Assembly (NCBI GenBank): GCA_963813335.1
Contig: CAWEYL010000001.1
Location: 736,001 to 800,000, forward strand
DNA length: 64,000 nucleotides
Reading direction: 5' to 3'
Source: an uncultured Chloroflexia bacterium
Lineage (GTDB): Bacteria; Chloroflexota; Limnocylindria; Limnocylindrales; CSP1-4
Shown here: in pieces, positions 17,659-35,811 of the stretch
Numbering within the stretch: the first letter of the stretch is position 1
How the letters are laid out: the number at the start of each line of letters is the position of its first letter
The notes under the pieces: generated by a model
Database searches by the model: none
What the model was told of the DNA's origin: nothing
The model's input: the letters and a program-made list of their open reading frames with translations, nothing else
Translations under genes and position numbers: made by a program

Positions 17659-19845
17659 CTACGGCTGCTCGGCCGCGAACGCCGCGACGTAGGAGCGGTT
17701 CAGGTAGAGCAGGGTCCCGCTCCCGTTGGTGGTCTTGACGTTCGCGTTCAGCGTGACCGCGAAGGCGCACTTCTTGTCGGCCCCGAGCAGACCGCCGAGC
17801 GTCGTGTTCGAGTCGACGTACGCCGGGGCGGGCGGCTTGCCCCGCTCCGCGAACTCGCCCATCGAGTACGGCGTGCCACCGCCGATGCCCTTGACGATCG
17901 ACATCGAGTAGCCCGCCAGGAACGACGGATCCGTGGAGCCGTGCACGTGGGGGTGATATGCCCGGTAGAGGATCGAGACGTGGTCGCCGGCTGCGCCGTC
18001 GAGGAACTGGCAGGTCGGCGTGCCACTCGACCCGGACAGCTGGATCCCCTCGATGACCGCGCTTGCCGGGCGGTTGTCCCACCACAGCGCGTGCGTCAGG
18101 GCTGAGAACGGCACGTTGTCGGGCGGACCGGCCTGGACCCGCCAACGCCCGAACGTGAACGCCTTCTGGGTGCCGGTGCCGGTCGAGCCGGTCGGCCGGA
18201 TCTGGTTCCCGCCGCCATCGAAGACCTCGATGCGCACGAGGTACTTGCCGTCGGGACGCTGGGTCGTGTCGAGGATGGCGTGGAACTGGTTGTCGTCCCA
18301 TTGCTCCATCGCGCTCAGCAGCCCGCCCGTCTCGTACGGGATCTCGAAGAGGCCGCTCGAGTTCGGACCGAGCGAGTGCTGTGCCCGGATCCAGCCCGTG
18401 CCGAACACCCACTTCCAGGATGTCCAGGCGGGGATGGCGACCGGCGTCCAACCGCCGACCGGATCGCCGTGGGCGTCGGCGGCGGCAACGTCCACACGGA
18501 AGTAGCGGGCGAGCGACTGCATGCCGGGGCTGAAGAAGTAGCGGAGCCCGAGCGAGCCGCCGAGCGGCAGGTTGACGCCGGGACCGTCCACGGCGGAGGG
18601 GCTGAGCAGCCCGTCGGTCGTGCCCAGGTCCAGCACGGAGTCCGGCGAATCCTGGTTCGGGGTGCCGAGGTTCCAAGTCTGGGTCGATCCGATCGAGTGC
18701 AGCAGGACCGTCGCGTCGCCGGCACCCGGGACCACCGGATCGCTGCCGCACGACACGCCCGCCAGGCTGTACGACGTCAGGGTGGGATGCGCCCCGGCCG
18801 CGAACCACTGTCCGGCGGCAGGGCCGTCGTAGATGGTCACGGTCACGCCGTTGATGACCTGCTTGACCTTGTAGGCGTACTCGTCGCTGCAGTTCGGGAG
18901 GTAGATCCGCGGGAAGTCGCGCCAGCACGCCGTGAACGTCCCGTTGTCGGCGATGAGCCCCTCGCCGACCTTCGTGCCCACCCCGCACGTGCACCACAGG
19001 TACGGTCGCAGCTTGATGTACTCGGACAGGCGGTCGCCCTTGAGGGTGCGCAGGGCGAAGGTGTCGCGTTCAAGGTTCAGCTTGCGGATGTCGAGCGCTC
19101 CGCCGCTGGCGACCTGCTCGAGCATGGCGAACGGCGCCGGATCCGGGCCTGGACCGGGTGGGAACGGCCCCGGATCGGGGTCGGGCGGGAAGGGCACGGG
19201 GAAGGGGGGATCGCCGGGTGGCGGCCAGTGCGGCGGCCACTCCACCGGTCCGTCGTACCAGTCGCCCGGGTCGATCACGATCGGGGGCTCGCAGCAGCAG
19301 GTCCGCCGGTACACCTCCACGATGCCCTGGCAGACGGTGGCGCAGCGGTAGGGATGGAAGACGGAGACCGGATCGACGAGGGAGACGTCGACGAGCTTCG
19401 CGGCCGAGGTCTTGGCCGACAGCGTCGAGAGGGCGCCGATCGTCGTCGAGGCCTTGACGTAGTCGATGAGGTGCCAGTAGGGGAAGCAGCGGCGGACGCT
19501 GCCGGAGACGCACTCGGTGAACCCGTACCACGGACCCCACGCCCCTTCGGGCAGGCGCAGGGCGTCGCCCTGGAAGAGCTCGCGCGCCTCCTCGATGCGG
19601 TATCCGAGGAACTGGTCGCCGCCGGCCGAGGGGTCGGCCGAGGCATCCCCGATCACGATCTGCGACGCCTTGTCGAGCGCGCTCGCGGCCAGCGTGAACT
19701 TCCCGTCCGCGGCCACCTTGGCGGACCCGACGACCTTGCCGTCGGCGGCCAGCGCGTGCACCGCGATCGCCGGTCGCTCCTCGCGCCCCTCCGCGCCCAC
19801 CAGCTCGATGCGGCCGCTCAGCCCGGCAGTCTTCCCCTCGGCCAT
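17659..19845 (-). CDS. Hypothetical Cys-rich 728-aa protein with Pro-rich linker, no signal peptide
   Basis: Long ORF with strong GC3 bias and GAGGGG RBS; RRTCCC and CTCG clusters; PPDPDPGPFPPGPGPDP segment. Confidence 0.85.
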   Translation of the reverse strand: MAEGKTAGLSGRIELVGAEGREERPAIAVHALAADGKVVGSAKVAADGKFTLAASALDKASQIVIGDASADPSAGGDQFLGYRIEEARELFQGDALRLPEGAWGPWYGFTECVSGSVRRCFPYWHLIDYVKASTTIGALSTLSAKTSAAKLVDVSLVDPVSVFHPYRCATVCQGIVEVYRRTCCCEPPIVIDPGDWYDGPVEWPPHWPPPGDPPFPVPFPPDPDPGPFPPGPGPDPAPFAMLEQVASGGALDIRKLNLERDTFALRTLKGDRLSEYIKLRPYLWCTCGVGTKVGEGLIADNGTFTACWRDFPRIYLPNCSDEYAYKVKQVINGVTVTIYDGPAAGQWFAAGAHPTLTSYSLAGVSCGSDPVVPGAGDATVLLHSIGSTQTWNLGTPNQDSPDSVLDLGTTDGLLSPSAVDGPGVNLPLGGSLGLRYFFSPGMQSLARYFRVDVAAADAHGDPVGGWTPVAIPAWTSWKWVFGTGWIRAQHSLGPNSSGLFEIPYETGGLLSAMEQWDDNQFHAILDTTQRPDGKYLVRIEVFDGGGNQIRPTGSTGTGTQKAFTFGRWRVQAGPPDNVPFSALTHALWWDNRPASAVIEGIQLSGSSGTPTCQFLDGAAGDHVSILYRAYHPHVHGSTDPSFLAGYSMSIVKGIGGGTPYSMGEFAERGKPPAPAYVDSNTTLGGLLGADKKCAFAVTLNANVKTTNGSGTLLYLNRSYVAAFAAEQP

Positions 19846-19930
19846 GACGCCCCTCTTCCCGGCTCAGGTGACCTGCGCATGGGCAGGTCGATCGACGACG
19901 AAGTCCGGCCGGGAGCCTGACAGCCGGGCC

Positions 19931-19990
19931 ATCACCGCCTCGCCACGGGGCGGTCACATGGGCGTCACCGCTGCGTCACGGGTGTGTCAG
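19931..19990. promoter_or_regulatory. Phased direct-repeat array (6 GTCAC-like pentamers, 11-bp period); putative SARP binding site
   Basis: atcac 19931, gccac 19942, gtcac 19953, 19964, 19975, gtcag 19986; minus-strand -10-like CAGGCT at 19914-19919. Confidence 0.75.
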
Positions 19991-20105
19991 CCGGAAGTCC
20001 CGGGGCGCCCGCCGAACGTTTGCTTGACCGGCCGCCGCCGACCGACGCAGACTGGCCGGGAGGGCGCGGGGAGCGCGATTCCGCCGCATCGCGGTTGGGG
20101 ACACG

Positions 20106-20846
20106 ATGGGCATGCGAGGCGCCAGGAGGCCTGCGGGCGTGCGATCCTGGCTTTCATTGACCGACGAGTTCGAACTCGTCGTCCACGGCCGCGAGATCGG
20201 GCTGCCGCATAGCGTCGAGCGCGTCGTGGCCTACATCGGCCTCTCGACGCAGCCGGTCCACCGGCTGAAGCTGGCCGGTACCCTCTGGCCGGATGTCGCG
20301 GAGGTCCAGGCCGCGCGCAGCCTGCGAACGGCGCTGTGGCGCCTCCAGCGGGGCGGGGTCCGCATCGTGGACGCCCACGAGGATCGCGTCGCCCTGCTGC
20401 CGATGGTGCGCGTCGACGTGATCGAGCTGTTCGACCTCTGCCGCGAGCTGCTCGACGACCGCGACGGCCAGGCGCTCGGACGGGTCAGCGACCTGATCGA
20501 CAACACCGAGCTGCTGCCCGACTGGGACGAGGAATGGGTCGTGGCCGATCGGGAGCGCTATCGGATGCTGCGACTCCAGGCCCTCGAGTTGGCGGCGGAA
20601 CGGCTGATCGTCCGCGCCGAATTCGGGCGGGCCATGGAAGCCGCGCTGGCCGCGACCATCAGCGACCCGCTGCGCGAGAGCGCCCGGCGCCTCGTGATCC
20701 GGGTGCACCTCGCCGAGGGCAACCTCGCGTCCGCGCTGCGCGCGTATGACGACTATCGGACCCTGCTGGACCGCGAGATCGGGGTGGAACCGTCGCTTGC
20801 GATGCAGCGGCTCATCGGCTCGCTGGAGGCCGTGCCCGTCAGCTGA
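20106..20846 (+). CDS. Small SARP-family activator (winged helix + BTAD domain)
   Basis: LAGTLWPD...ARSLRTALWRL, VDV, ELLPDWDEEWVVADRER, DPLRESA, EGN, LDREIGVEPS. Confidence 0.9.
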   Translation: MGMRGARRPAGVRSWLSLTDEFELVVHGREIGLPHSVERVVAYIGLSTQPVHRLKLAGTLWPDVAEVQAARSLRTALWRLQRGGVRIVDAHEDRVALLPMVRVDVIELFDLCRELLDDRDGQALGRVSDLIDNTELLPDWDEEWVVADRERYRMLRLQALELAAERLIVRAEFGRAMEAALAATISDPLRESARRLVIRVHLAEGNLASALRAYDDYRTLLDREIGVEPSLAMQRLIGSLEAVPVS

Positions 20847-20849
20847 CCG

Positions 20850-22271
20850 TCAGGGGCTCCAGAACCCGATGTCGCCATCGAGCGGATACGGGTCGCCGCC
20901 GTCCGGGAAGAGGACGTCGGTGTGGGTGTCGCCGGCCGCGTCGACCTGCGGGACGAGGATCGACGAGCTGTCGGGCGCCCACATCCGATGGCTCAGAGCG
21001 TACTGGTCGAAGTAGGTCAGCACCTGGTTGGTGTAGCGCTCGGCGGGCGCGACCTCGGGGTTCGACCGGATCGCGCCGGACGCGACATCCACGAAGACCA
21101 TGTGGACCTCGATCGAGCCGCTCGGTGACGCCGACGGTGCGGGGCTGCTGCTCGCGGTGGTCGCGCCGGCCGGGACCGGCACCACCCGGATCGCCGCGAT
21201 CGTCTTGCCGTCGGGCGACCAGGCGAAGCTGACGACCTCGCCGTCCAGCAGCGTCCGCACGTCGCCCGACGCCGCGTCGATCAGGCGCAGCGGGCCGAGC
21301 GGGACGCCCACCGCGGACGCGACTCCCGTGGTCTCGCCGATGGAGGCCAGCACGTCGCCCGCCGGCGAGAAGTCCAGGGCGGCCAGGCCGACCACCGGCA
21401 TCGAGTGCTCGTGGGTGCCGTCACGGGTCGCGACGACGACCGCGTCCGTGCCGGTGGTGCCCGCGCGGACGTAGCCCACGTAGGCGCCGTCTGCGCTCAC
21501 GTCAGGCGAGCGGAAGCTGCCGGGTGTCGCGATCGCGGGGGCGACGGCCTGGCCGTTCATGGCGAGCTCGCCGAGGAACGCGTCGGCACCGGTGCCGATG
21601 TGGGCGAGCAGCCGGTCGGACCCGCTCCAGTCGTAGTAGAACGGCGACCCGCTGCGGATCAGGGAGCCTGGGCCGCTGCCGTCGACCGCCGCGCTCCCAT
21701 CGGAGGGCGCGATCCGCAGCGAGATGCCGCCGTCCTCGTCGGACAGGAACGAGACGGCCTTGCCCTCGGGATGCCACGAGAGGTAGAACGGCCCGACGCC
21801 CGCCTTCCGGAAGATCACGCGCGGTGGCACGGGGGACCCGGACGTCGCCAGGCCCACGTCGATGACCACCACCGACGTGTCGGTCGCCGTGGTGCGGATC
21901 GCGGCGATCAGCCGGCCATCGGGCGACCAGGCCGGGAACCCGTAGGTGCCCGTCGACGCATCGACGAGTGGCGTGCTCGCGCCGTGGGCGTCGACCAGCG
22001 AGAGCGACCCATCCGCGTGCGCCAGGGCGATGGTACCCGCGCCCGCGAACGGCCGGATGTTCGGCGCGGTGCTGGTCCCGGGCGTGACGCCCGGTGTGGC
22101 AGCGGGCGAGGCGGTCGGCGGGAGGAGCGGCCCCAGCGTGACGTCGGCGGCGGGGGACGGCCGATCCGGCGTGGCGGGGGCACACGCGGAGGCGATCAAG
22201 GCGGCGGACACGAGCAGGCCGGCAGCCCCCAGGGTCCGGGTCCATGCTCGGGCGCGTCCTGCCTCCATCAC
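20850..22271 (-). CDS. TolB-like beta-propeller (PD40 repeat) lipoprotein
   Basis: LIASAC lipobox; repeated WSPDG/FSPAG/WAPDS motifs. Confidence 0.8.
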   Translation of the reverse strand: MMEAGRARAWTRTLGAAGLLVSAALIASACAPATPDRPSPAADVTLGPLLPPTASPAATPGVTPGTSTAPNIRPFAGAGTIALAHADGSLSLVDAHGASTPLVDASTGTYGFPAWSPDGRLIAAIRTTATDTSVVVIDVGLATSGSPVPPRVIFRKAGVGPFYLSWHPEGKAVSFLSDEDGGISLRIAPSDGSAAVDGSGPGSLIRSGSPFYYDWSGSDRLLAHIGTGADAFLGELAMNGQAVAPAIATPGSFRSPDVSADGAYVGYVRAGTTGTDAVVVATRDGTHEHSMPVVGLAALDFSPAGDVLASIGETTGVASAVGVPLGPLRLIDAASGDVRTLLDGEVVSFAWSPDGKTIAAIRVVPVPAGATTASSSPAPSASPSGSIEVHMVFVDVASGAIRSNPEVAPAERYTNQVLTYFDQYALSHRMWAPDSSSILVPQVDAAGDTHTDVLFPDGGDPYPLDGDIGFWSP

Positions 22272-22324
22272 CGCACGATACGCGCGAGGGCCGCCGATGG
22301 ATGCGTCCCTGGCGCGTTCGCGCC

Positions 22325-22477
22325 CTAGACGATCGGGTCGACCTGCTCGTCCTCGGGGATAACGCCGGGCTTGGGCGGCGTCTCCTCCGGCTCGATGTCG
22401 TCGTCCTCATCGCGGCCGTCGACGTCGGGGTCGTCCACGAGCGGCGGCCCCATGGGTTCCTGCGGGTCCTGCGGCAT
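22325..22477 (-). CDS. 50-aa acidic, Pro-rich microprotein (MPQDPQEPMGPPLVDDPDVDGRDEDDDIEPEETPPKPGVIPEDEQVDPIV)
   Basis: G-rich RBS directly after the stop of the upstream gene; ATG 22477, TAG 22325. Confidence 0.6.
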   Translation of the reverse strand: MPQDPQEPMGPPLVDDPDVDGRDEDDDIEPEETPPKPGVIPEDEQVDPIV

Positions 22478-22489
22478 GTCGGAGTCCCC

Positions 22490-23383
22490 CTACGCCGGAT
22501 CGATGACGGAGCTGTGCATGAACCGCGCACCGGCGCGGTCCACCTGGTGCCAGACCCGGCTGCCACCCACGCTCTGGCCTTGCCTGGTCGTGCCGAAGAC
22601 GCGGATCCGCGCGCCGTTGCGGCGCCGGTCGACCACGTTGCCCTTGCCCGGGACGCCGCCAGGCTTCGAGCGCACGAGCGCGACGGGCACCGTGACCACG
22701 TACTCGCCCGAACCGGAAGACGTGGCGCCGAACGTGAACTTGACGGGCGCGACTGCCTGGACCGGGTGCCCGGGCGCGACGCCGACCGGGTGTCGCGTCG
22801 GGAAGACCGCGGCATAGGCTCTGCCCTGGCCGACCGTGCCGTGGGCCAGCTCGAGGGCGCCGGCGGCCTGGCGCAGCAGCGCGGTCGGGACGGGTTGTGG
22901 CGCCTTCGCGATCCCATGGAAGCGGTGGTCGTCCAGCGGGTCGTAGACATCGCCGTTGGGCAGCCACAGCACGATGTGACCGTCCTCGAACTCCTTGCTG
23001 CCGGCGAACGCGGTGCCCAGGAACGGCTTGTACTTGAGCTGGAGGGCGATCGCGTGCCCGTCCTGGCGGAGGTCGTCGAGCTCGTCGAAGTCGATCGGCG
23101 TCTCGACGTCGATGGTGATGCCGTGATGCTTGAGCACGGCCCGGATCTGCCGCAGGTTCAGCCCCGGCGACCCCGAGTCGGGCGTCGGCTCGTTGCTCTC
23201 CTTGCGGACCTGGGTCCCGGTGATCTTGACGCCGCTATCGAATTCGGCGCCCATCGCGGCGACGAACGCCGTGCAGTTGACCCAGCCCTGGAACACCTTC
23301 TTGCCCTTCGCGTTGATGAAGGTGCTCTTGTCGCCGCTGATCGCCGGGTTCTGTGCCTGGAATGTGACCGTGCCGCCTGCCAT
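22490..23383 (-). CDS. Putative C39-like cysteine peptidase with C-terminal SH3b-like domain
   Basis: Q...WVNCT (Cys), GHIVL (His), YDPL (Asp); C-terminal LVRSKPG...GQSVGGSRVWHQV...FMHSS; GGAGG RBS. Confidence 0.6.
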   Translation of the reverse strand: MAGGTVTFQAQNPAISGDKSTFINAKGKKVFQGWVNCTAFVAAMGAEFDSGVKITGTQVRKESNEPTPDSGSPGLNLRQIRAVLKHHGITIDVETPIDFDELDDLRQDGHAIALQLKYKPFLGTAFAGSKEFEDGHIVLWLPNGDVYDPLDDHRFHGIAKAPQPVPTALLRQAAGALELAHGTVGQGRAYAAVFPTRHPVGVAPGHPVQAVAPVKFTFGATSSGSGEYVVTVPVALVRSKPGGVPGKGNVVDRRRNGARIRVFGTTRQGQSVGGSRVWHQVDRAGARFMHSSVIDPA

Positions 23384-23428
23384 CTCGAACCTCCATCGGC
23401 TTGCGTCGGCCGACTCTAGGCGGAGGCC

Positions 23429-23455
23429 GTCATGGTCGCGTCACGCCGACGTCTT
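23429..23455. promoter_or_regulatory. Weaker phased array (gtcat/gtcac/gtctt, 11-bp period) upstream of the peptidase gene
   Basis: Copies at 23429, 23440, 23451; minus-strand -10-like TAGAGT at 23413-23418. Confidence 0.4.
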
Positions 23456-23487
23456 GACCACGCACGCCGATTGGTATCCTGCCGCCG

Positions 23488-24741
23488 GTGCGACTCCTTC
23501 CGGCCCGCGCCGTCGACGCCGTCTCCCCGCCGCGGCTCGGGGGGAGCTTCAGGTGGCTGCTCACCGCCGAGATCATCACCAACCTCGGCGACGGCGTCGC
23601 CATCGCCGCCGGCCCGCTCCTGGTCGCTTCGCTGACGCATGACCCGTTCCTCGTCTCGATGGCGCTGCTGAGCGAATACCTGCCGACCCTGCTATTCGGG
23701 GTCGTGGCCGGTGCGGCGGCGGACCGCTTCGACCGACGCCGGATGGTGGCCGCGGTCAACGTCGTCCGGGCGATCGTCCTGGCCATCCTCACCGTCACGA
23801 TCGCCACCGGTGCCGTCGAGATCGCGATCGTGCTCGCGGCGCTGTTCGCGATGGGCACCGCCGAGGCCTTCGCCGATACCGCGGGGAGCTCGCTGGTCCC
23901 GAACCTCGTACAGCGCGAGGACCTCGGGACGGCCAACGCGCGGCTGGAGGGCGCGTACATCCTCACGAACCAGCTCATCGGCCCGCCGGTGGGCGCCTTC
24001 CTGTTCGTCGTGGGCATGGCCCTCCCGTTCGCCACGAACGCGGCGTGCTTCGCCCTGGGCGCGCTGCTGGTCATGCGCGTCGCGACGAGCCAGCCGGCCG
24101 TCGAGGCACCGGAGGAGGGGTCGAGCCTGGTCGCGGAGATGCGCGAGGGGTTGCGCTGGCTCATGGGCCACGCCCCGATGCGGACGCTCGCCCTGACGAT
24201 CTTCGCGTTCAACGTCACCTATGGCGCGGCGTTCGCGGTCCTGGTGCTCTACGCCTCGGAGCGGCTCGGGATGGACGCCTTCGGGTTCGGGCTCCTGACG
24301 ACGGCGGTCGCCATCGGCGGCATCATCGGCACGGCCTCATACGGGTCCCTCGAGCGGCGCTTCCGCCTCGCCGATATCATGCGGGTCGGCCTGGTCATCG
24401 AGACGCTCACTCACCTCGTGCTCGCCCTGACGACCTCGGCCGCCGTCGCGCTCCTGACGATGGGCATCTTCGGCGCCCACGCCTTCGTGTGGGGCACGAC
24501 GTCGACGGTCGTCCGCCAGCGCGCCGTCCCCGACGCGATGCTCGGCCGGGTGACCGGCATCTACCACGTCGCGCTCGTCGGCGGCCTGGTGATCGGGACG
24601 CCGCTCGGCGGGCTCCTGGCATCGACCTACGGGATCACGGCTCCCTTCTGGTTCGGGTTCATCGGCTCCGCGCTGCTCGTGGTCATCCTTTGGCGCCAGT
24701 TCGACCTCATCGTGCATGCTGGCGACACGGCAGCGAGGTAG
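23488..24741 (+). CDS. MFS transporter
   Basis: About 12 TM segments; GAAADRFDRRR motif A. Confidence 0.92.
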   Translation: MRLLPARAVDAVSPPRLGGSFRWLLTAEIITNLGDGVAIAAGPLLVASLTHDPFLVSMALLSEYLPTLLFGVVAGAAADRFDRRRMVAAVNVVRAIVLAILTVTIATGAVEIAIVLAALFAMGTAEAFADTAGSSLVPNLVQREDLGTANARLEGAYILTNQLIGPPVGAFLFVVGMALPFATNAACFALGALLVMRVATSQPAVEAPEEGSSLVAEMREGLRWLMGHAPMRTLALTIFAFNVTYGAAFAVLVLYASERLGMDAFGFGLLTTAVAIGGIIGTASYGSLERRFRLADIMRVGLVIETLTHLVLALTTSAAVALLTMGIFGAHAFVWGTTSTVVRQRAVPDAMLGRVTGIYHVALVGGLVIGTPLGGLLASTYGITAPFWFGFIGSALLVVILWRQFDLIVHAGDTAAR

Positions 24742-24744
24742 GTC

Positions 24745-25731
24745 ATGAAGGCAGCGATCCGCACGCGGTACGGCTCACCCGACGTGGTCGAGCTTCGCGA
24801 CGTCGACCGCCCGACGCCGACGGGCAGTCAGGTGCTGGTGCGCGTGGTGGCCGCGTCGGTGAACCGCGCCGACCTCGACCTGATCGAGCCGCGACCGCAG
24901 GTCTCCCGCGTGTTCCTCGGCCTGCGCGGTCCGCGCAACCACCGCCTTGGCATCGACGTCGCCGGCGTCGTCGAGGCTGCCGGTCCGGACGCGAAACGCT
25001 TCAAGCCGGGCGACGCGGTCTTCGCGGACCTGTACCCGTTCGGGAGCGGGAGCTTCGCCGAGTACGCCTGCGCGCCGGAGCGGGCCTTCCTGCCGATCCC
25101 GGCCGGGATGTCGTTCGAGACGGCCGCGACGCTGCCGCATTCTGGGACGCTCGCGATGCAGGGCCTCCGGCGCCGGAACGGCCGCACGCTCCGTCCCGGC
25201 GACCAGGTGCTGATCGATGGCGCATCGGGCAACGTCGGCCCGTTCGCTGTCCAGGTCGCGAAGGCGCTGGGCGCCGAGGTCACCGCGACGGCCAGCCCGG
25301 CCAAGCTCGACTTCGTGCGCTCGCTCGGGGCTGATCACGTCCTGGACTACACGGCCGTCGACTACACGCGAGCGGGTGCGCGCTACGACTGGATCCTGGA
25401 TACGGACTCGCACCATCCGATCTTTCGCTGCCGGCGCGCGCTCAAGCCCGGGGGCACGTACGTGACGCTCGGTGGCACGGCGTGGCCGCTCCTCATCGGG
25501 CTGACGATCGGGCCGCTCGTCTCGCTCGTCACCAGTCGCTGGTCGGGCCTGATGCTCTGGTGGAAGCCGTTCGGCCGGGCGGACATCGAGGCGCTGTCGG
25601 CGCTCATCGCCGATGGCAAGGTCGTCCCGGCCATCGATCGGCGGTTCTCGCTCAGCCAGGCCGTGGACGCGCTCCGCTACGTCGACCAGAAGCAGGCGAA
25701 GGGCAAGGTCCTGATCGTCATCGACGGATGA
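24745..25731 (+). CDS. NAD(P)-dependent alcohol dehydrogenase / quinone reductase (MDR family)
   Basis: YGSPDV, AASVNRAD, GSFAEY, GASGNVG, GKVLI. Confidence 0.9.
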   Translation: MKAAIRTRYGSPDVVELRDVDRPTPTGSQVLVRVVAASVNRADLDLIEPRPQVSRVFLGLRGPRNHRLGIDVAGVVEAAGPDAKRFKPGDAVFADLYPFGSGSFAEYACAPERAFLPIPAGMSFETAATLPHSGTLAMQGLRRRNGRTLRPGDQVLIDGASGNVGPFAVQVAKALGAEVTATASPAKLDFVRSLGADHVLDYTAVDYTRAGARYDWILDTDSHHPIFRCRRALKPGGTYVTLGGTAWPLLIGLTIGPLVSLVTSRWSGLMLWWKPFGRADIEALSALIADGKVVPAIDRRFSLSQAVDALRYVDQKQAKGKVLIVIDG

Positions 25732-25792
25732 CGATGCCCAGAGTCGACCGACGTCGGCTGGCGCGGCGCGCTCGACGCGCCACGCTGGGCGG

Positions 25793-27405: not shown

Positions 27406-27527
27406 GGCGGACAGCCTAGTCGAGGCGGCACGTCGGCATGAGCGGGCCGCTTGGTCGGTCCATCACGCGACTTCCGGCCCTAGTGCCCGGTGGCTGGTCA
27501 CGGCACGCTCGCACCCGGAGGTACGCC

Positions 27528-28085: not shown

Positions 28086-28092
28086 CCGGGGC

Positions 28093-28968
28093 TCAGCCCT
28101 CGGGGAGGACCTCGCGCAGCCTGGCCGCGAACGCGTCGGGCTCGCCGGTCTGGCCGTACTCGCCACCGAGGAAGCCGCCATGACCGCTCGGGAAGGCGGC
28201 GACCGTGGTGCCGAGCCGCTCGGCCGCGGCCTCCGCGCCCCGGTGGGCCATCTCGCCGTCGGACTCGGCGCCCGCGGCGAGCACGATCCGGGTCGGCGCG
28301 GCCTGCAACGCGGCGAAGTCCGGCTGGTAGTGCGTGCAGGTCACGATGTTCTGGAAGAGCAGCGGGTCCGTGCGGTTGCCGTCGTCGCCGGCCGGTAGAC
28401 CGAACATCGCCGGGTCCGGGGCCGGCTGCGCCGCGAGCTCCGCGGTCATCGGCCCCTTGTGGCTCACCGCCACGATGAACTGGGCCATGGCCGGACCGAA
28501 GCCCTGCCGCTCGTAGGTCTCGCCGATGGCCGCGGTGAACGCCATCGCGCCGTCGCGGTCAGGCAGGATCGAGGCGAGCGGCGGCTCGTGGGCGACCAGC
28601 GTCCGCACGTCCTGCGGGTGCGCGGCCACCAGGGCGAGCGCGTTCACCGCCCCGCCGCTGCTGGCGAACAGGTCGACGGGACCGCCGCCGACCGCGGCGA
28701 TGATCCGATGCAGGTCGTCGGCGTGCTGCTCGGGCGTCGAGCGGCTCGCCGGGTCCGCCTTCACGCTGCGCTCGACGCCGCGCGGGTCGTAGGTGACCAC
28801 CGTGCGGTCCGGGAAGTGTCCGGCCAGCGTCGCGAACCCGCCCGCGCCCATCGGCGACCCGATCAGGAACAGGACCGGGGCGGGGGAGTCCGCCCGCCGG
28901 ACGTCATAGGTCAGGACGGCGCCGGGCGCCTCGATCGTCTGCGTCGTGGGCTCGGTCATCGTGGTCAT
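28093..28968 (-). CDS. Alpha/beta fold hydrolase
   Basis: YDPRG, ASSGG nucleophile elbow, HEPP, GHGGF; AGGAGG RBS. Confidence 0.88.
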   Translation of the reverse strand: MTTMTEPTTQTIEAPGAVLTYDVRRADSPAPVLFLIGSPMGAGGFATLAGHFPDRTVVTYDPRGVERSVKADPASRSTPEQHADDLHRIIAAVGGGPVDLFASSGGAVNALALVAAHPQDVRTLVAHEPPLASILPDRDGAMAFTAAIGETYERQGFGPAMAQFIVAVSHKGPMTAELAAQPAPDPAMFGLPAGDDGNRTDPLLFQNIVTCTHYQPDFAALQAAPTRIVLAAGAESDGEMAHRGAEAAAERLGTTVAAFPSGHGGFLGGEYGQTGEPDAFAARLREVLPEG

Positions 28969-29481
28969 CGCGCACCTCCTGCGGCCGCCGCCGTCTCGGC
29001 GAGGATCGCGTCGATCTGGCCGACCGCCTGCGTGAGGCCCTCCTCCATGCCCATCGCCAGGACCTGCTCCATGGCTTCGACGGTGCGGGAAGTGGCTCTC
29101 GATCTGCATCCGCGTGCGGGTGGCGTCGATCGGCTCGATCGTGACGATCCCCTCGCCGCGCGGGAAGTCGTCATTCGGCGTCCCGTCCTCGTTCGCGAAC
29201 CCGTCGATGAAGACGAGTCGGCGCGGCGGATCGACCTCGACGATATCCCAGAAACCGTGCGGCTGGTCGCCACTCGGGCCGGTCATGTGGTACTCGACGT
29301 GGCTGCCGACCGCGAGGTCGTGCTTCGTGAAGGTGGCGGGGTAGGTCGGCGGACCCCACCAGCGCTCGAGCTGGCGCGGATCGGCCCACAGCTCCCAGAC
29401 GCGTGCGGGCGACGCGTCGAACTCTGCGGTCAGGGTCATGGTCAGGGCCTCGGGGTCCTTGCGGACAGCGGTCACCGTCAT
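28965..29481 (-). CDS. SRPBCC/AHA1 domain protein (one frameshift near 29085)
   Basis: RVWELWADPRQLERWWGP...; C-terminal MGMEEG lies in a second frame. Confidence 0.85.
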
Positions 29482-29825
29482 GCGATGGTCTCCTCCGTGC
29501 TGCTGATGAGGGCCGTCATGCGGTCGACGCGACCGCGCCACAGCGACTCGTACTGGTCGAGCAGGCCGCGCGCCATGCGGAGCCCCTCGATGTTCGTGCG
29601 CACGACCTTGCGGCGGCCGGTGCGCTCCTTGGTGATGAGGCCGGCCCGCTCGAGCACCGCGACGTGCTTCTGCACGGCCGCGAAGCTCATGGGGTAATGC
29701 CCGGCCAGTTCGGCGACGCCCTCGCTGCCAGCCAGCGCCCGCAGCACGATGTCGCGCCGGGTGGCGTCGGCAAGGGCGGCGAAGACGTGGTCGGCGTTGA
29801 GGGCGAGCTGCATTGATACAACCAT
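29478..29825 (-). CDS. ArsR/SmtB family transcriptional regulator
   Basis: FAALADATRRDI, MSFAAVQKHVAVLERAGLI; start at 29825 or 29813. Confidence 0.9.
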   Translation of the reverse strand: MVVSMQLALNADHVFAALADATRRDIVLRALAGSEGVAELAGHYPMSFAAVQKHVAVLERAGLITKERTGRRKVVRTNIEGLRMARGLLDQYESLWRGRVDRMTALISSTEETIA

Positions 29826-29835
29826 ACGGTTGTAT
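29816..29835. promoter_or_regulatory. ArsR autoregulatory operator ATACAACC-N4-GGTTGTAT
   Basis: Perfect 8-bp inverted repeat overlapping the ArsR start. Confidence 0.75.
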
Positions 29836-29878
29836 GACGGCCACGTCAAGCCCCAGGCGATGCGGGTAGGCTCCCGTC

Positions 29879-30682
29879 GTGCCATCCATCGACGATCTCG
29901 TCCCGGGTGACCGTGACCAGCTGGACGGTGTGGTCGCGCTGCTGCGTGCGGTCCTTGACGACGGTGCCCTGGCCGTCTACCTGTATGGCTCGGCCGTCCG
30001 CGGCGGCCTCCGCGCCGACAGCGATCTCGACATCTTCGTCGTCACGCGGCGCCCGACGACGCCCACCGAGCGGAAAGCGCTGATCGACGGCCTCATGGGA
30101 CGGTCCCGGTCATCGGAATCTCCGGAACGACGGCATCTCGAGGTGACGGTCGTCGTGCTTGCCGATGTCCGACCGTGGCGGTATCCGCCGCCGCTCGAGA
30201 TGCAGTACGGCGACTGGTGGCGGGACGCGTTCGGAGCCGGCGACCTCTCGCCGTGGACGTCACCGAGCGCCGATCTCGCCGTCCTCCTGGCGTCCGTCCG
30301 CGCCGAGGGCGTGCCGCTGTTCGGCCCGCCGGTCGTCCAGTTGCTCGATCCGGTGCCGCGCGAGGATCTCGAGCAAGCGGTTCGAGAGGTCATCCCGGAA
30401 CTGCTGCCGGGCCTGGGTCAGGACCACACGCGGCACGCGCTGCTCACGCTGGCCCGGATCTGGTACACCCTGGCGACCGGCGAGATCGAGTCGAAAGCCA
30501 CAGCCGCCACGTGGGCGATGGCGCGCATGCCCGCCGGGACAGGTGACGGGCTTCGCCTGGCCCTCGCGGGCTACCTTGGCGAGACGCCGGACACGTGGGA
30601 TGAGCCGGCGCTCGCGGCCGCACGAAGCGACTGGCAGGCGATGCTCGCTGCGCTCGGACCCGACGACGCCGGATCCCCGTAG
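29879..30682 (+). CDS. Aminoglycoside adenylyltransferase family protein (AadA/ANT-like)
   Basis: YLYGSAV.GGLR..SDLD, LEVTVV, PWRYPP..EMQYGDW, DLAVLL, LTLARIWYT...I.SK. Confidence 0.85.
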   Translation: MPSIDDLVPGDRDQLDGVVALLRAVLDDGALAVYLYGSAVRGGLRADSDLDIFVVTRRPTTPTERKALIDGLMGRSRSSESPERRHLEVTVVVLADVRPWRYPPPLEMQYGDWWRDAFGAGDLSPWTSPSADLAVLLASVRAEGVPLFGPPVVQLLDPVPREDLEQAVREVIPELLPGLGQDHTRHALLTLARIWYTLATGEIESKATAATWAMARMPAGTGDGLRLALAGYLGETPDTWDEPALAAARSDWQAMLAALGPDDAGSP

Positions 30683-30770
30683 CCCGTCGACGTCGAAGCA
30701 GGGCGTCGTCGCAGTAGCGATACGAGCCATACTCGGGTCAGGCGGGGCCGTGATCCAAGGAGGCATCCCA

Positions 30771-31208
30771 GTGGCGAACTTGGTCGTCCATTTCGAGATC
30801 CAGGCGTCGGAGCCGCAGCAGCTGATCGACTTCTACTCCGAGCTCCTCGGCTGGCGGTTCACCCAGTTCGGCGAGGTGCCGTACTGGTCGATCGACACGG
30901 GGGAGGGGGCCATCGGCAATGTCGCCGGCTCGGCCGGGCACGGCATCAACGGCGGCCTCAACCTTCGACGCGGGCCGAAGCCGGAGATCGGCGCGCCGGT
31001 CATGGGCTGCAACATCGTCGTCGGCGTGGACGACGTCGATGCCCTGATGCTTCACGCGGTCGAGCTCGGGGGCATGGAGGCGCTCGCCGCCCAGGACATG
31101 CAGGGCGTCGGTCGCGTCGGCTACCTGCTCGACCCCGACAACAACGTCTTCGGCCTGATCTCGGCGGTCATGTCCGACGGCACGGTCGGGATGGGCGGCG
31201 GGAGCTAG
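30771..31208 (+). CDS. VOC (glyoxalase/bleomycin resistance) family protein
   Basis: VVHFEI, FYSELLGW, GINGG, DPDNNVFGL; AAGGAGG RBS. Confidence 0.9.
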   Translation: MANLVVHFEIQASEPQQLIDFYSELLGWRFTQFGEVPYWSIDTGEGAIGNVAGSAGHGINGGLNLRRGPKPEIGAPVMGCNIVVGVDDVDALMLHAVELGGMEALAAQDMQGVGRVGYLLDPDNNVFGLISAVMSDGTVGMGGGS

Positions 31209-31312
31209 CGTCGTCGCGCGCCATCGACCGCCGGAACGGTCGATCGCGGGCGCGCCATAATCCGCCGAGGCCGTGGATACGACCGGGCCGCTCCCACACG
31301 AGGTGAAGGTCA

Positions 31313-32341
31313 ATGGCCACCCAGCGCTTCGAGTCGTCGGTCACGGCGGTCTCCTGGATCCCGTCCGAGGCCATCAGCGGCCCGTCGAAGGTCCCGTTCG
31401 AGTTCGGCGTCACCCACTACGACGAGCCGCCACCCGATCGGCTGGAGAGCCTCGAGGCCCTTCGAACGAGCGACCGCTTTCGCGAGGCGAACGAGCTCCG
31501 GGCGTTCATCGAGGTGGAGGACGGGCGGATCGTCAGCGCCGGACACCTCGGCCAGGGCCATATCGGCGCGACGACCGTCCGGGTGGGCCCGGCAGCGCTC
31601 CGGTTCCCGGCGGTCCAACTGCCGGACATCCAGTCGGACCCCGAGATCGGTGCCTCATCGGCCCGCTTCGTGCAGACGATCGGAGGTCGGATGGGCCTGC
31701 CGACGCCGCGCCCGGTACGGCACAAGCCATTCGTCCAGTTCTGGCCGTCGATCGCGTGGACGACCCTGGCCCTGACGATCAACACCGACGGGACGTCGAG
31801 CCACGAGCTCGTCGGCGCGAGCCCGTTCCCGCGTCACTGGGTCTACGACGACGATGGCCGACTCGTCGAGAAATCCGGCGTGATCGACTTCGGAAAGTGG
31901 TTCAACGAGTCCTACGGCGACCGGACCCCGTGGGGCGAGCAGGATTCCCCAGCGGTGGTCGCCGCCGTCGAATCGGCCCTGGAGCGATCGCTCTCGAGCG
32001 CGATCATGAGCGGCGGCGAGAAGCCGAAGATCCGCTCGATGACCGAGGGCGAGACCCTCGTCCGCCAGGGGGATCCTGGCACCGACGTCTTCCTGATCCT
32101 GGACGGGATCTTCGTCGTGGAAGTCGACGGCAACGCGGTCGCCGAGATCGGGCCCGGAGCGGTGGTCGGCGAGCGCGCCAGCCAGCTCGCCGGCAAACGG
32201 ACGGCGACGCTGTGGGCTCGCACGAAGGGCCGCGTGGCGAGCGTCCCGCACGAGACGCTGGACCTGCAGGGACCTTGGCCGCCTCGCCGCCACGCGTCAG
32301 CACGCGGAGCTGACCTCGGTCCACGGACCGCCGAGGGCTAG
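31313..32341 (+). CDS. Cyclic nucleotide-binding domain protein (possible frameshift near the C-terminus)
   Basis: C-terminal GETLVRQGDPG..VFLILDG...GPGAVVGE...RTAT; unknown N-terminal domain. Confidence 0.8.
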   Translation: MATQRFESSVTAVSWIPSEAISGPSKVPFEFGVTHYDEPPPDRLESLEALRTSDRFREANELRAFIEVEDGRIVSAGHLGQGHIGATTVRVGPAALRFPAVQLPDIQSDPEIGASSARFVQTIGGRMGLPTPRPVRHKPFVQFWPSIAWTTLALTINTDGTSSHELVGASPFPRHWVYDDDGRLVEKSGVIDFGKWFNESYGDRTPWGEQDSPAVVAAVESALERSLSSAIMSGGEKPKIRSMTEGETLVRQGDPGTDVFLILDGIFVVEVDGNAVAEIGPGAVVGERASQLAGKRTATLWARTKGRVASVPHETLDLQGPWPPRRHASARGADLGPRTAEG

Positions 32342-33063
32342 CGCGTGACGCAGATGCCGGGGGGCTCGGGGGTGTCGTGCGCGGCGCCCGCCGGGTACTT
32401 GCGCGTCCACGCGTAGAGGTCCGACAGGTCCTTCCCTGTGCCGAGCACGCCGATGTAGGCGTTGCCGCAGGTGACGCGGACGTTGGCGATGCCGTTCTCG
32501 TTGCGGAAGCACCCGTTCCGGCTGGGGCTCATGGGCGAGTTCTCCCAGTTGAAGACGCCGGGATCGTCCCAGTTCCCGACACCGTCACCGGGCGCCCAGG
32601 CCGCGTCGCCCGGCTTGTCGTGTTCGCAGTCTCCCGTGGCCAGAGGGATGTCGTACGAGGCGAGGCGAGTCATGTAGGCGTACGTGGCCTCGTTCTCCGT
32701 CGGGAGCCAGTAGACGCCGACGCTCGCGACGAGCGGGTCGTCGGGGCGGCACTCGATGGCGTCGAGGGTGTTCTCGGGCAGGTCGCTCCGGCGCGGCACG
32801 CAGTCGATCGCGGCGTCCGGGCGCAGCAGGGCGACGAGCTTCCGCTCGGCGGCGGTCATCGCCGACGAGGGCCGCGGCGTGGGGGCCGGCGTGACTACCG
32901 GAGCGGGCGTCGCGGCGGGGGACGGTGACGGCGTGACCACCGCGGAGGGCGCCGCGGTCGCGACCGGCGTACCCGTCGGGGCGGGGGAGGCCGACGGGCC
33001 CGACGACGTGGCGCAGGCGGCGACGAGCACGAGCACGGCGGGCAGGAACGCGAGACGGCGCAT
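32338..33063 (-). CDS. Hypothetical lipoprotein
   Basis: MRRLAFLPAVLVLVAAC lipobox, P/S/T linker, Cys-containing domain. Confidence 0.8.
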   Translation of the reverse strand: MRRLAFLPAVLVLVAACATSSGPSASPAPTGTPVATAAPSAVVTPSPSPAATPAPVVTPAPTPRPSSAMTAAERKLVALLRPDAAIDCVPRRSDLPENTLDAIECRPDDPLVASVGVYWLPTENEATYAYMTRLASYDIPLATGDCEHDKPGDAAWAPGDGVGNWDDPGVFNWENSPMSPSRNGCFRNENGIANVRVTCGNAYIGVLGTGKDLSDLYAWTRKYPAGAAHDTPEPPGICVTR

Positions 33064-33277
33064 CGATATGGTGCCTCTGAGGTTGCAGATCGACGAAGGA
33101 TCTGCCGCTCAGGATGCGCGTCCACTGCCACCGAGTCGCGTGACGGGCGTCCTCATCCCGGCATGGACGATCGTCCAGCCTCCGGGCCGGCGCGCCTGCG
33201 AAGGGACGCCCGGTCCCAGGGCGGGTCCGCGATGGCCGCGCTCGCCCCGGACGCCTCAGGGCGGGATCGAGGGATCG

Positions 33278-34774
33278 TCAGACGACGTTGATGGTCCCTT
33301 GAGCGTCCAGAGGACACGGGAGAGACGGATCGAACGTGATGTGGATCGCGCTCGCGACGAAGAACCCGCCGATGTGCTGCGCGGCGATCTCCGGTGGCGT
33401 GCCTGGCTGTGTCAGGTTCACGTCCTGCGCGAAGACGTAGACGCGCCACAGTCCGTGGACGTCGAGGTGATGCTTGAGCAGGAGTCGATACGCCCCCTCC
33501 AGGTCGAGCGAGCCGGCGTAGACGCCGTCGTTCGCGCCAGGATCGAATCCGAGCCCGTCGTCGGTCAGGGGGACCACGAAGTACAGGCTCCCGGGCGAGC
33601 GGAACAGGGCGAACGAATACAGGTCGGAGCCCTTGAACAGGCTGCCCCCCGGCCTGTGGAACTTCGCCCGGACCCAAAGCGGGTCGAATGGGTGGACGGT
33701 CGCCGGCGTCTCGACATCGACGCCGTCCGACTCGTGGATATTGGTCTGGGTCTCGCTGACGGAGTACTCGTACGTCTGACCCGTCGTGAACCGTGTATAG
33801 GTCCAATCCACATCGGCGGTGTAGGGCTTGCCCGCGTTCGGCGCATCGGGGAGCGTCCACTCGGCGATCACCTTCTCGCCGATCGTCAGCTCGGCCGCGG
33901 CCGGTGGGGTCTTCTCCTGGCCGCGCCAGAACGGGTCTGCAGCATCTGAGAGCGCGACGGCCGCAGCGACGGTCGCGATCGCCGACGCGACGCCCGCGAC
34001 CGTGTAGTCGCGTTCGGGGCCAGCGCCGGGATCCGGCGTGCAGCACGAGACGGACGGGTCCGTCTCCTCGAAGGTCCCGCTCGCGCCGAACGACGCCGTG
34101 CCGGCCCCCAGCGCGGCAGCCACGATGGCGACGATGGCGGCGATGATGGCGATGATGATCGCCAGGATCTTCCACCAGGGGTCCGAGAATGGAAGGTCGC
34201 CATGGACCCCGGTGAACGCCGGGTTCGGGGCCCATGCCAGGGTCATCCCGGTCGGCACCCACGGCCCGCCGTCGGGCGGGCAGTCGCACTTGCCGTCACG
34301 ACGACTCCCCCAGGTCGGCTTCTGGAGGATGGCGCTGATGTCGGACGCTGTGAGCGTCCCTTCCTCGACGGTGCAGGTGTAGGAATTGGTCGTGCTGTCG
34401 AAGCGGGTCTGCGACACGAAGATCTGCTGGATGGTGCGCCGCGACTCGAAGCCGTCGGCCTTGGCCACGAAGCTCACGAGACGCTTGCCAGGGGTCGCGT
34501 GTTCGAAGTTCGCGTCCCACATCACCTGGACCGATGCGCCGGCCGGGATCGACGCGAACGAGACGGTCTTGGCGACGGGTGCGATGCCGGGGTCGCCGAC
34601 GCTCTCGAGATAGATGCTGACGTTGCTCAGCGCCGAGGTCGACGTGTTCGTGTAGTGGCAACCGATCCGGAGGTTGTAGAGCGCGTTGTCGAAGATCCCG
34701 TCGGGCAACATGATGTTGGTGACGGGCTCGATGGCGAATGGCCGGGAGAGGACCTGCATCGGAGTGGCGCTCAC
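33278..34774 (-). CDS. Hypothetical 498-aa protein with internal hydrophobic hairpin and DDG..D..A.DG.Y motif
   Basis: GTGA overlap with the upstream gene; WWKILAIIIAIIAAIVAIVAAALG and VAGVASAIATVAAAVAL; DDGLGFDPGANDGVYAG. Confidence 0.85.
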   Translation of the reverse strand: MSATPMQVLSRPFAIEPVTNIMLPDGIFDNALYNLRIGCHYTNTSTSALSNVSIYLESVGDPGIAPVAKTVSFASIPAGASVQVMWDANFEHATPGKRLVSFVAKADGFESRRTIQQIFVSQTRFDSTTNSYTCTVEEGTLTASDISAILQKPTWGSRRDGKCDCPPDGGPWVPTGMTLAWAPNPAFTGVHGDLPFSDPWWKILAIIIAIIAAIVAIVAAALGAGTASFGASGTFEETDPSVSCCTPDPGAGPERDYTVAGVASAIATVAAAVALSDAADPFWRGQEKTPPAAAELTIGEKVIAEWTLPDAPNAGKPYTADVDWTYTRFTTGQTYEYSVSETQTNIHESDGVDVETPATVHPFDPLWVRAKFHRPGGSLFKGSDLYSFALFRSPGSLYFVVPLTDDGLGFDPGANDGVYAGSLDLEGAYRLLLKHHLDVHGLWRVYVFAQDVNLTQPGTPPEIAAQHIGGFFVASAIHITFDPSLPCPLDAQGTINVV

Positions 34775-35628
34775 GACTGCTTCTCCTTCCGCTCCGTCCG
34801 CTTGGCCTTCTGGGCGACGACCACGAACCCAAGCCCGCCGAGGACCCTGTCGCCGTCGCGCTCGACGATCCTGACCAGCTCGTATTCGTTCTCGGGCAGG
34901 CCTTTCGCCCGGACGGCAAGGTGGACGGCCGTCGAGGTTCCGCGAGGCACGGCCAGCTCGAGCCTGTCCTTCCCGATCGGATCCTTCGCTCCGACGCAGC
35001 GAGCCTCGAGGTCGAGGCCGGCCTCGGCGCGAGGTCGCTTGGCCGGCCGCAGCCCGCGAAGGCCCAGGCCGGCCAGGGTCCGGGCATCGAGCTCGCCGCC
35101 GACGTCAGCCGTCAAGGTCACCCGCTTGTCGGCGCGCAGCAGCCCCGACACCGTGAGGATGAGCGACATCGCCTGGCCGCCCGCCACGAGGACGGTGAGG
35201 TTCTTCTGCGCCACCTGTCGGTAGGTCGGTGGGTCGAACGCGTCAGGCAACGGGTTCGGAAGGGGATCGCTGGCGTGGTTGGCGACCGCCACCAGGCACT
35301 CGTGGCCGCCGTTCACCATCACGGGGGTCCATGGGACCAGGCACAGGGCGTCCTGGGCCCCGCCGGCCGGCAAGTCCGCGTAGGCCGATCCGACGAACGT
35401 GGCGTTGCTGCGCGTGACCTGCAAGGCCGGGTTCGCCCAGTAGAAATCGAGCCTCACGCCGTTGGCGTCCGAGCTACCGAGGTTGGCGACGTGGGCCCAG
35501 AGGTACGCCGTCTCGCCGGCGGCCGGACTGCCGGGTGAAGCCGTTGGATCGCTCCCAGGGACCACCCAGATATCCGGACTCAGGTACCAGTCCGGGATGC
35601 CATCGCGGATGAGCAACTGGACGGACAT
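34771..35628 (-). CDS. Hypothetical protein with Ig/CARDB-like SPDIWV domain
   Basis: SPDIWV...AHVANLG...FYWANP...HECLVA...QVAQKNL; GAGGGGG RBS. Confidence 0.8.
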   Translation of the reverse strand: MSVQLLIRDGIPDWYLSPDIWVVPGSDPTASPGSPAAGETAYLWAHVANLGSSDANGVRLDFYWANPALQVTRSNATFVGSAYADLPAGGAQDALCLVPWTPVMVNGGHECLVAVANHASDPLPNPLPDAFDPPTYRQVAQKNLTVLVAGGQAMSLILTVSGLLRADKRVTLTADVGGELDARTLAGLGLRGLRPAKRPRAEAGLDLEARCVGAKDPIGKDRLELAVPRGTSTAVHLAVRAKGLPENEYELVRIVERDGDRVLGGLGFVVVAQKAKRTERKEKQS

Positions 35629-35709
35629 GGCCGACCCCCTCTGGCGATCGTCGTGACGACCTGAGGTGGAACGCCCCAAGGCCGAGGCGAGAAGATTGCC
35701 CTCAACGGC

Positions 35710-35747
35710 GTCACCAGCTCGTCACTCGAGAGTCACCCGAGAGTCAC
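35710..35747. promoter_or_regulatory. Phased direct-repeat array (4 perfect GTCAC, 11-bp period); putative SARP binding site
   Basis: gtcac at 35710, 35721, 35732, 35743; minus-strand -10-like CAATCT at 35693-35698. Confidence 0.75.
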
Positions 35748-35811
35748 GGATGGACGTCAGGTCGCCTCACCGAAGACGACCTGGAACGCCGGCACCGCCG
35801 CGGCGGTGCCC

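Follow-up and report, generated by a model that had tools for sequence, protein, structure and literature searches.

In a 64,000-nucleotide stretch of an uncultured Chloroflexia bacterium (GTDB Limnocylindrales, CSP1-4; GenBank assembly GCA_963813335.1, contig CAWEYL010000001.1, positions 736,001 to 800,000), a gene for a small activator of the SARP (Streptomyces antibiotic regulatory protein) type lies beside a run of GTGAC-like repeats phased at 11 bp. We refer to the whole stretch as the window and count positions from its first letter. The run, array A (19931..20001, minus strand), comprises seven units facing a gene for a 728-aa protein (17659..19845, minus strand), and is very probably the cis operator through which the SARP acts on this divergent gene. 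Array B (35710..35747, minus strand), with four units facing the gene for a 285-aa protein, is a predicted distant target site, and a phased pair, site C (23429..23444, minus strand), precedes the gene for a 297-aa protein. The overall reading, held with moderate confidence from sequence comparison, is that the SARP would drive A in cis and B in trans and that C belongs to a sister class of promoters.

Re-reading of the sequence bore out the repeat coordinates, minus-strand genes and -10-like hexamers given in an earlier note on this DNA. On the forward strand, array A reads ATCAC (19931), GCCAC (19942), GTCAC (19953, 19964 and 19975) and GTCAG (19986), with an additional seventh in-phase unit, GTCCC, at 19997. 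Array B consists of perfect GTCAC units at 35710, 35721, 35732 and 35743, and site C of GTCAT (23429), GTCAC (23440) and GTCTT (23451), the third with two mismatches. All three read GTGAC on the sense (minus) strand of their downstream genes, the pair of site C as GTGACG/ATGACG. A predicted -10 hexamer, also on the minus strand, follows the last unit of each: CAGGCT (19914..19919) 11 nt past array A, CAATCT (35693..35698) 11 nt past array B and TAGAGT (23413..23418) 10 nt past site C. CAGGCT, CAGGCT and CAGCCT stand at the same distance as array A's hexamer in loci L015, L019 and L018, respectively (L and G numbers are working labels for the loci and genomes compared). No sigma-70 -35/-10 pair was found near array B in 32900-36000. 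Within the window, a relaxed pattern of a phased pair, 10-11 nt and NANNNT matches exactly A, B and C. A Pho-box reading, with GTCAC on the sense strand, was rejected because the arrays read GTGAC toward the target in divergent and tandem layouts alike.

Arrays A and B are exceptional in the host genome (working label G000; 2.54 Mb, 72% GC, 81% complete). With up to two mismatches, four-copy runs number five at period 11 and none at periods 8-10 and 12-15, and all five overlap A or B as judged from the three-copy list, making these the only four-copy arrays in the genome. An independent-site estimate gives a chance expectation per genome of 7e-6 for four perfect copies and 0.006 for three. In genome-wide scoring with a matrix trained on 87 units from 23 arrays, none of them from the host genome, A comes out on top (27.9 bits) with B next (26.2 bits), both ahead of the best control-period scores (16.9-21.4). 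Site C ranks 21, and 9 to 128 control sites at other periods reach its score; as a bare triple it is not above chance, and it is rescued by its -10 geometry and its conservation in two orthologues.

The activator gene (20106..20846, plus strand) encodes 246 aa, a winged-helix DNA-binding part and a BTAD domain, without a NOD/TPR extension. The BTAD domain matches Pfam PF03704 at 57 bits (cut-off 22; E 3e-15), phmmer aligns the protein to AfsR (8hvr) at E 4e-5, and a subfamily profile, A3 (43 rows), aligns residues 9-235 to the whole AfsR SARP domain at E 2.5e-17. Pfam Trans_reg_C gave no match at E 0.001, so a strict Pfam-pair definition would miss this protein; the N-terminal OmpR-type winged helix is present by the profile A3 alignment and by kept contact residues. 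The DNA-contacting residues of AfsR named in the available part of PMC10936776, W74, Q81, R87, T88 and R92, align to W61, Q68, R74, T75 and R79, and the recognition helix is LRTALWR. BTAD match, AfsR alignment and contact residues together uphold the original call of a SARP/BTAD activator. The protein ends at the stop at 20846 and has no NB-ARC, TPR or LuxR extension and no sensor domain. Its subfamily has 889 representatives (50%-identity clusters) at E 1e-30, and the best 150 relatives are mostly 220-340 aa. Distribution is patchy in the genus (16/131 genomes at E 1e-40) and sparse in the phylum (6/301 genomes), and the subfamily occurs on 24 plasmid records, 23 of them actinobacterial. The gene's own likely sigma-A-type promoter, TTGACC-18 nt-CAGACT (20024..20053, plus strand), would stand back to back with array A; a TTGAC word with a CAGACT, TACGGT or TAGGGT hexamer recurs, by eye, in L015, L016, L019, L022 and L042.

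The pairing of SARP gene and array recurs in many relatives. The 24 distinct close homologues (at a tblastn E of about 1e-38 or better) include 15 in which a phased GTGAC run, no more than 450 nt off, points away from the SARP gene to its neighbour, in divergent or tandem layouts, and none (0/24) has a run pointing at its own start; at periods 9, 10, 12 and 13 an equal score is never reached in 29 rows. A search of the 131 genus genomes gave 74 three-copy hits in the 16 that have a close SARP (15/16 positive) and 74 in the other 115, with 23 at a period-10 control over all 131, and four-copy arrays occur in 10/16 close-SARP genomes versus 6/115 others; these genus-wide counts are hand tallies over kin that are not independent. 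NANNNT lies 10 or 11 nt past the last unit in 14/23 SARP-linked arrays, 7/57 other arrays and 3.8% of random positions, and at any other spacer from 3 to 29 in at most 2/23 SARP-linked arrays, the 23 being hand-picked, with the host genome and its nearest relative left out and one array extended to a trailing phased unit. An array adjoins 22/30 proteins whose recognition helix ends in W-R or W-K and 0/10 with other helices (hand tally; 7 of the 10 are one clade).

These patterns suggest a mechanism of binding and activation. The sensor-less SARP, whose own amount would set its activity, may bind side by side along the 11-bp-phased array, one protomer per (C/G)GTGAC(G) unit. The two protomers nearest the promoter would sit partly on the -35 region and bring sigma-A RNA polymerase to a weak -10 placed 10-11 nt past the last GTGAC, as AfsR does at afsS, and further upstream units would add cooperativity. 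Small SARP target promoters have direct repeats at 11 or 22 bp, with the 3' repeat about 8 bp before the -10. The host arrays show this repeat spacing when compared with the numbering of PMC10936776, and their 11-bp phase and -10 at 10-11 nt agree with the SARP operator geometry first suggested for them. According to the available text of that study, the downstream AfsR repeat spans -29 to -19 and R92 contacts T-27; with the T of GTGAC set at AfsR T-27, the hexamer would fall at -13/-12, the proper -10 place for the predicted start sites.

Arrays follow the SARP gene over at least seven cargo contexts. Behind them stand members of the 728-aa family, kinase-LanC synthetases with a Cys-rich small open reading frame (ORF), M6, S8 and C1 proteases, and genes of extracellular contractile injection systems (eCIS; sheath, Pvc16 and eCIS-core genes); the islands concerned also hold M43 and M28 proteases. 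Subfamily members adjoin eCIS operons in G144, G033 and G106 and in records of Rhodococcus opacus, Streptomyces clavuligerus and S. europaeiscabiei, and on annotated plasmids other SARP neighbours are S8 or M35 proteases, phospholipase D and peptidoglycan-binding proteins. These cargo lists are partial, being based on crude gene calling over many assemblies with frameshifts. As far as sequence can tell, the conserved unit is regulator plus operator and the cargo is exchangeable; the nameable cargo (eCIS, lanthipeptide synthetase, proteases) resembles machinery for antagonism or related to secretion. At the host locus, the 34 window ORFs scanned include no sheath, tube or baseplate gene and no polyketide synthase (PKS), nonribosomal peptide synthetase (NRPS) or enzyme for peptides made by the ribosome and modified after translation (RiPPs), in line with the initial view that the targets are not an antibiotic cluster.

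The lanthipeptide-type context occurs at L223:5276-5647, L226, L207, L210 and L213, where SARP, array, a 121-124-aa Cys-rich repetitive ORF and a kinase-LanC synthetase lie together. The SARP/kinase-LanC island found in six genus genomes is probably a lanthipeptide cluster of class III/IV type, whose precursor is unusually long, and the same six genomes also encode a 472-496-aa unknown protein with its own array. In R. opacus (NZ_CP095404), divergent GTGAC pairs stand at L265:8080 and 8100, at a locus where the subfamily gene adjoins the eCIS. In S. clavuligerus (CP065238; L273:4821-4850), a phased GTGAC/GCGAC/GTGAT triple faces the SARP gene itself, unlike the Chloroflexota loci, and autoregulation is possible there. 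The more distant members L282 and L283 have GTAAC/TAACG-type phased units, a possible shift in specificity. For the 'LRSALC' clade, no motif stood out over those at other periods in a de novo period search of its plasmid loci.

The cis target of array A is a Cys-rich, mostly beta, multi-domain protein with a Pro-rich linker and Ig-like C-terminal domains, from a widespread but unnamed family (157 homologues, 12 invariant Cys). A Pfam scan gave no match, and a fold search with its structure model (predicted local distance difference test score, pLDDT, 84; beta-rich, with Ig-like domains) returned generic Ig-fold matches only, with Z up to 9.7. ESM Atlas searches with the 728-aa and 498-aa proteins returned unnamed clusters only, plus TTR-52 on 30% of one 728-aa cluster, and profiles of the 728-aa, 498-aa and 297-aa families found nothing among PDB sequences. 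Seven of 78 family loci hold a SARP, with a strict array in six and a shorter one in the seventh, and an array is present at 0/71 SARP-less loci, many of which are short. No conserved neighbours were found beyond closely related loci (29/78 loci, chosen for length). By eye, the target proteins show no N-terminal signal peptide. Also in the window, a lipoprotein-like WD40/TolB propeller gene (20850-22271) converges on the SARP gene and adjoins the SARP in the nearest relative too; 31313-32341 encodes a cNMP-binding protein, a 72% homologue of which also lies near a 728-aa gene in L018; and 29879-30682 encodes a nucleotidyltransferase with an aminoglycoside adenylyltransferase C-terminal domain. 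Window neighbours at 9.8-42 kb are oxidoreductases, transporters, hydrolases and unknowns, and the ORFs have a coding-like third-position GC (GC3) of 0.88-0.93.

Array B stands before the 285-aa gene (34771..35628, minus strand; no Pfam or NCBIfam match), the first gene of an invariant two-gene cassette in which it lies directly upstream of a 498-aa gene (33278..34774, minus strand) in 74/80 loci, the other six being cut by contig ends. The 498-aa protein is 69-86% identical across distant phyla and combines an Ig domain, a long-stranded beta core with an inserted hydrophobic helix pair (residues about 200-274) and an Ig/choice-of-anchor-X domain. Its model (pLDDT 72) is beta-rich, with Ig-like domains and conserved cysteines, and matched no named family; fold searches returned generic Ig-fold matches only, and the central domain (about 124-345) was barely covered. 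We would guess, from this anatomy and the company the SARP subfamily keeps, that the 498-aa protein and its 285-aa partner insert in a membrane. The cassette appears to have been acquired horizontally: the 498-aa gene is found in 1/131 genus genomes, so no other genus genome has the cassette. It has no fixed neighbours outside closely related loci (22/80 loci, chosen for length), and no plasmid record with the 498-aa gene was found. Array B matches array A in word, period, orientation and spacer at a distance of about 15-16 kb, and the small SARP is the only one of the genome's three BTAD proteins with a matching helix; control of array B in trans by the SARP is, from these likenesses, reasonably probable. 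Action at a distance has parallels in G106, where the SARP lies 34 kb from its arrays at the opposite end of one eCIS locus, and in G005 and G012, where an array and -10 precede papain-family genes on contigs other than the SARP's. The proposal that the SARP acts on non-adjacent genes is plausible for B, though orthologues lend it no support there, and gives way at C to another promoter class as the more likely account.

The gene behind site C (22490..23383, minus strand) encodes a probable papain-fold (C39-like) peptidase of 297 aa with an SH3-like C-terminal part, a lead rather than an assignment. In its family C37 and D148 are invariant, H136 is near-invariant and D152 is also conserved; Peptidase_C39_2 (E 0.0015) and SH3_3 each weakly match 1/26 members. 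Two orthologues from another genus (64-68% identical; L285, L286) keep the phased pair, 10 nt and TAGNNT (TAGTGT and TAGCCT), so site C is a real element. The close SARP clade is missing from the genomes of both, where the best profile match has an E of about 1e-28, versus 1e-71 or better for members. The wider pattern RWGAC-N6-RWGAC-N10/11-TANNNT, an RWGACG-pair promoter class, has 92 matches in 45/131 genus genomes, with five for the reversed control (hand tallies); 83/92 have a 10-nt spacer, 71/92 are in genomes without a close SARP, and four are in the host genome. Most class-C units are GAGACG, and a change at the equivalent T abolishes AfsR binding (PMC10936776). The class-C targets (17 genes from 20 regions) include Hcp, a peptidase of family C1, proteins with TIG domains and unknowns. 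In the host genome, phased GAGAC/GTGAC pairs or triples also stand at C1:44458(+), 46857(-) and 181640(-), C3:573997(-) and C6:131955(-); they belong to this genus-wide class, and behind them lie genes for a DUF4062-like/HAD protein, for a membrane protein whose end is TIG-like, for one carrying a GLCGGM motif and for others without assignment. Site C is most likely an activator-type promoter of this sister class, with its strong TANNNT, served by another regulator, with cross-binding possible; that the 246-aa SARP is its main activator seems doubtful. The search for the class-C regulator singled out none of three candidates: a MalT-like ATPase with a C-terminal SARP domain (C7) is too common for a presence test, a membrane-anchored SARP (C1) is without a clear orthologue set, and a second small-SARP group has no adjacent site.

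Several observations weigh against the proposed regulation of A and B. Nine of the 24 close SARPs are without a qualifying array within 450 nt, and six SARP-positive genomes have one lanthipeptide island in common, so the counts overstate independence. At actinobacterial plasmid loci (14 of 24 records taken), a strict array is present at 2/14, and the relaxed pattern gives seven matches at period 11 versus 2-5 at other periods. Another protein reads a similar word, as phased GTGAC triples exceed chance in 49/115 genomes that have no close SARP. For array B, the element is absent in 60/60 cassette relatives with enough upstream DNA, so its origin lies in this lineage or in a donor outside the sample; two of its adjacent 11-mers are 10/11 identical, as after recent slippage; 250 family genomes yielded one distant partial cassette match, without an array or a close SARP; and two other BTAD proteins are encoded in the 81% complete assembly. 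Background arrays without the -10 geometry (L209, L245, L190, L250, L244), behind which lie genes for a lactonase-type propeller, a multicopper oxidase and a cytochrome-c-biogenesis-like protein, suggest a third regulator.

The earlier note had one SARP activating A, B and C as a single functional programme. The three sites are alike in orientation and -10 geometry, are the only such sites in the window and lie within 18 kb, and the first unit of C is a perfect GTGACG. However, C ranks 21 and has a unit of a kind, A-initial, found 0/87 times in SARP-linked arrays; its architecture is kept in the two orthologues whose genomes are without the close SARP clade; most class-C sites (71/92) lie in genomes of that kind; and the cargo genes are never together elsewhere. 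A 285-, 297- or 498-aa gene is present at 0/78 loci of the 728-aa family, and a 728-aa gene or SARP at 0/80 loci of the 498-aa family. As they do not co-occur, the three targets are not one conserved functional programme, an idea we now consider unlikely. Near-identity of two adjacent 11-mers and absence of the element from every relative would also fit array B being a functionless tandem slippage product in GC-rich DNA, but only two of its four units are copies, four-copy runs at other periods are absent from the genome, and B equals A in word, period, orientation and -10 distance 16 kb off; slippage is an extremely improbable explanation.

Another regulator could read B while the SARP reads A. 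B, like C, would then be an expanded RWGACG-class site recognized by the MalT-like ATPase (G000:C7:72509-75292, L317; in 92/131 genus genomes), by the membrane-anchored SARP (G000:C1, 505 kb) or by the product of a gene missing from the assembly. The last two units of B do conform to the class-C pattern if the hexamer is CANNNT, genes resembling cargo (Hcp, C1 peptidase, TIG proteins) also stand behind class-C sites, and relatives have a second conserved small-SARP group (helix LRQALWL; L298, L299, L300, L335, L337, L338, L339, L341, L301) that has no tblastn match in the 81% complete host genome and no phased site adjoining its members in relatives. Against this, the four pure GTGAC units of B, with their 11-nt spacer and weak -10, are like A, whereas in class C pairs of GAGAC with a spacer of 10 nt prevail (83/92, hand tally); the helices of the two other BTAD proteins, LQVLVSR and LNQTVYF, differ from that of the small SARP, and no phased pair with a -10 was found beside either. 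We give this arrangement little credence. It is less probable still that a response regulator of the OmpR family (GlnR/AfsQ1/MtrA/PhoP-like) binds the arrays and that the SARP gene is a mere neighbour. GTGAC-N6-GTGAC fits the GlnR consensus, GTnAC-n6-GTnAC, in the available part of PMC10704036, and background arrays do occur in SARP-less genomes. Yet arrays track the SARP gene over its at least seven cargo contexts and point away from it, the -10 geometry parts linked (14/23) from background (7/57) arrays, and no nitrogen or phosphate genes are among the targets seen.

If the SARP controls arrays A and B, a subfamily that is under-detected by standard domain rules would have a predicted operator whose position and strand are given. 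The subfamily adjoins eCIS operons in culturable actinobacteria (R. opacus, S. clavuligerus and S. europaeiscabiei); BTAD regulators have been proposed for the switching-on of environmental eCIS without a site, and the operator gives a candidate. The GTGAC motif could be used for listing co-regulated uncharacterised genes and as a testable switch for mobile cargo genes, and array B may be an example of a resident regulator gaining control of a cassette that arrived by transfer. More speculatively, and only tentatively, the subfamily might act as a transferable master control over cargo used in conflict between bacteria (eCIS, lanthipeptides, proteases and two uncharacterised Ig-fold families). 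New genes would come under it by gaining a few GTGAC units spaced by one turn of the helix, as happened to the 285/498-aa cassette after transfer on this view, and the 498-aa protein with its obligate partner might be an undescribed two-component membrane-inserting protein. If so, the operator would be a search key for antagonism genes.

A SARP acting at phased repeats is already known; the novelty here lies in the operator word, in the subfamily, in a cargo that is not antibiotic and includes eCIS, and in a cassette that was likely captured. Searches of a library short of most subscription papers turned up no account of the GTGAC operator and none of a SARP transcriptional activator in Chloroflexota, and the supplements of PMC12224297 (82 SARP regions) and PMC8213781 (eCIS tables) may include members. 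Among the closest counterparts is AfsR at the afs box of afsS in Streptomyces coelicolor (8HVR, 8K60; available text of PMC10936776), which is alike in winged helix plus BTAD, in DNA-contact residues and in 11-bp direct repeats at a set distance before a poor -10 with no usable -35. The 246-aa SARP differs from AfsR in having no NOD/TPR, in a pairwise score of about 27 bits and in W in place of AfsR S91, and the arrays differ from the afs box in having 3-7 units rather than two, in the word GTGAC(G), in targets that are not antibiotic regulators and in a host that is no streptomycete. ActII-ORF4, DnrI, RedD and PapR2 resemble the 246-aa SARP in size, two-domain build, heptamer plus 4-nt spacer and adjoining target; the PapR2 site is GTCAGSS (available part of PMC7040171), and 82% of Streptomyces small SARPs are in biosynthetic clusters (PMC12224297). 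Unlike these cluster-situated SARPs, the subfamily mostly heads non-biosynthetic cargo, has no Pfam Trans_reg_C match and uses sense-strand GTGAC, although one branch heads the kinase-LanC cluster.

In the parts available, Geller et al. (PMC8213781) list BTAD as an eCIS shell domain and proposed regulator with no binding site or mechanism, and a S. clavuligerus phage-tail network (PMC13102240) includes a BTAD gene with no mechanism stated. The host locus is unlike eCIS-linked BTAD regulators in having no eCIS. AfsQ1 and MtrA boxes follow GTnAC-n6-GTnAC. GlnR has the same consensus in the PMC10704036 text cited above. These boxes share their word pattern and the period of 11 bp with the host arrays, as OmpR-type winged helices would lead one to expect, but their regulators are response regulators with global metabolic regulons, whereas the host arrays follow a SARP gene and stand at a fixed distance from the -10.

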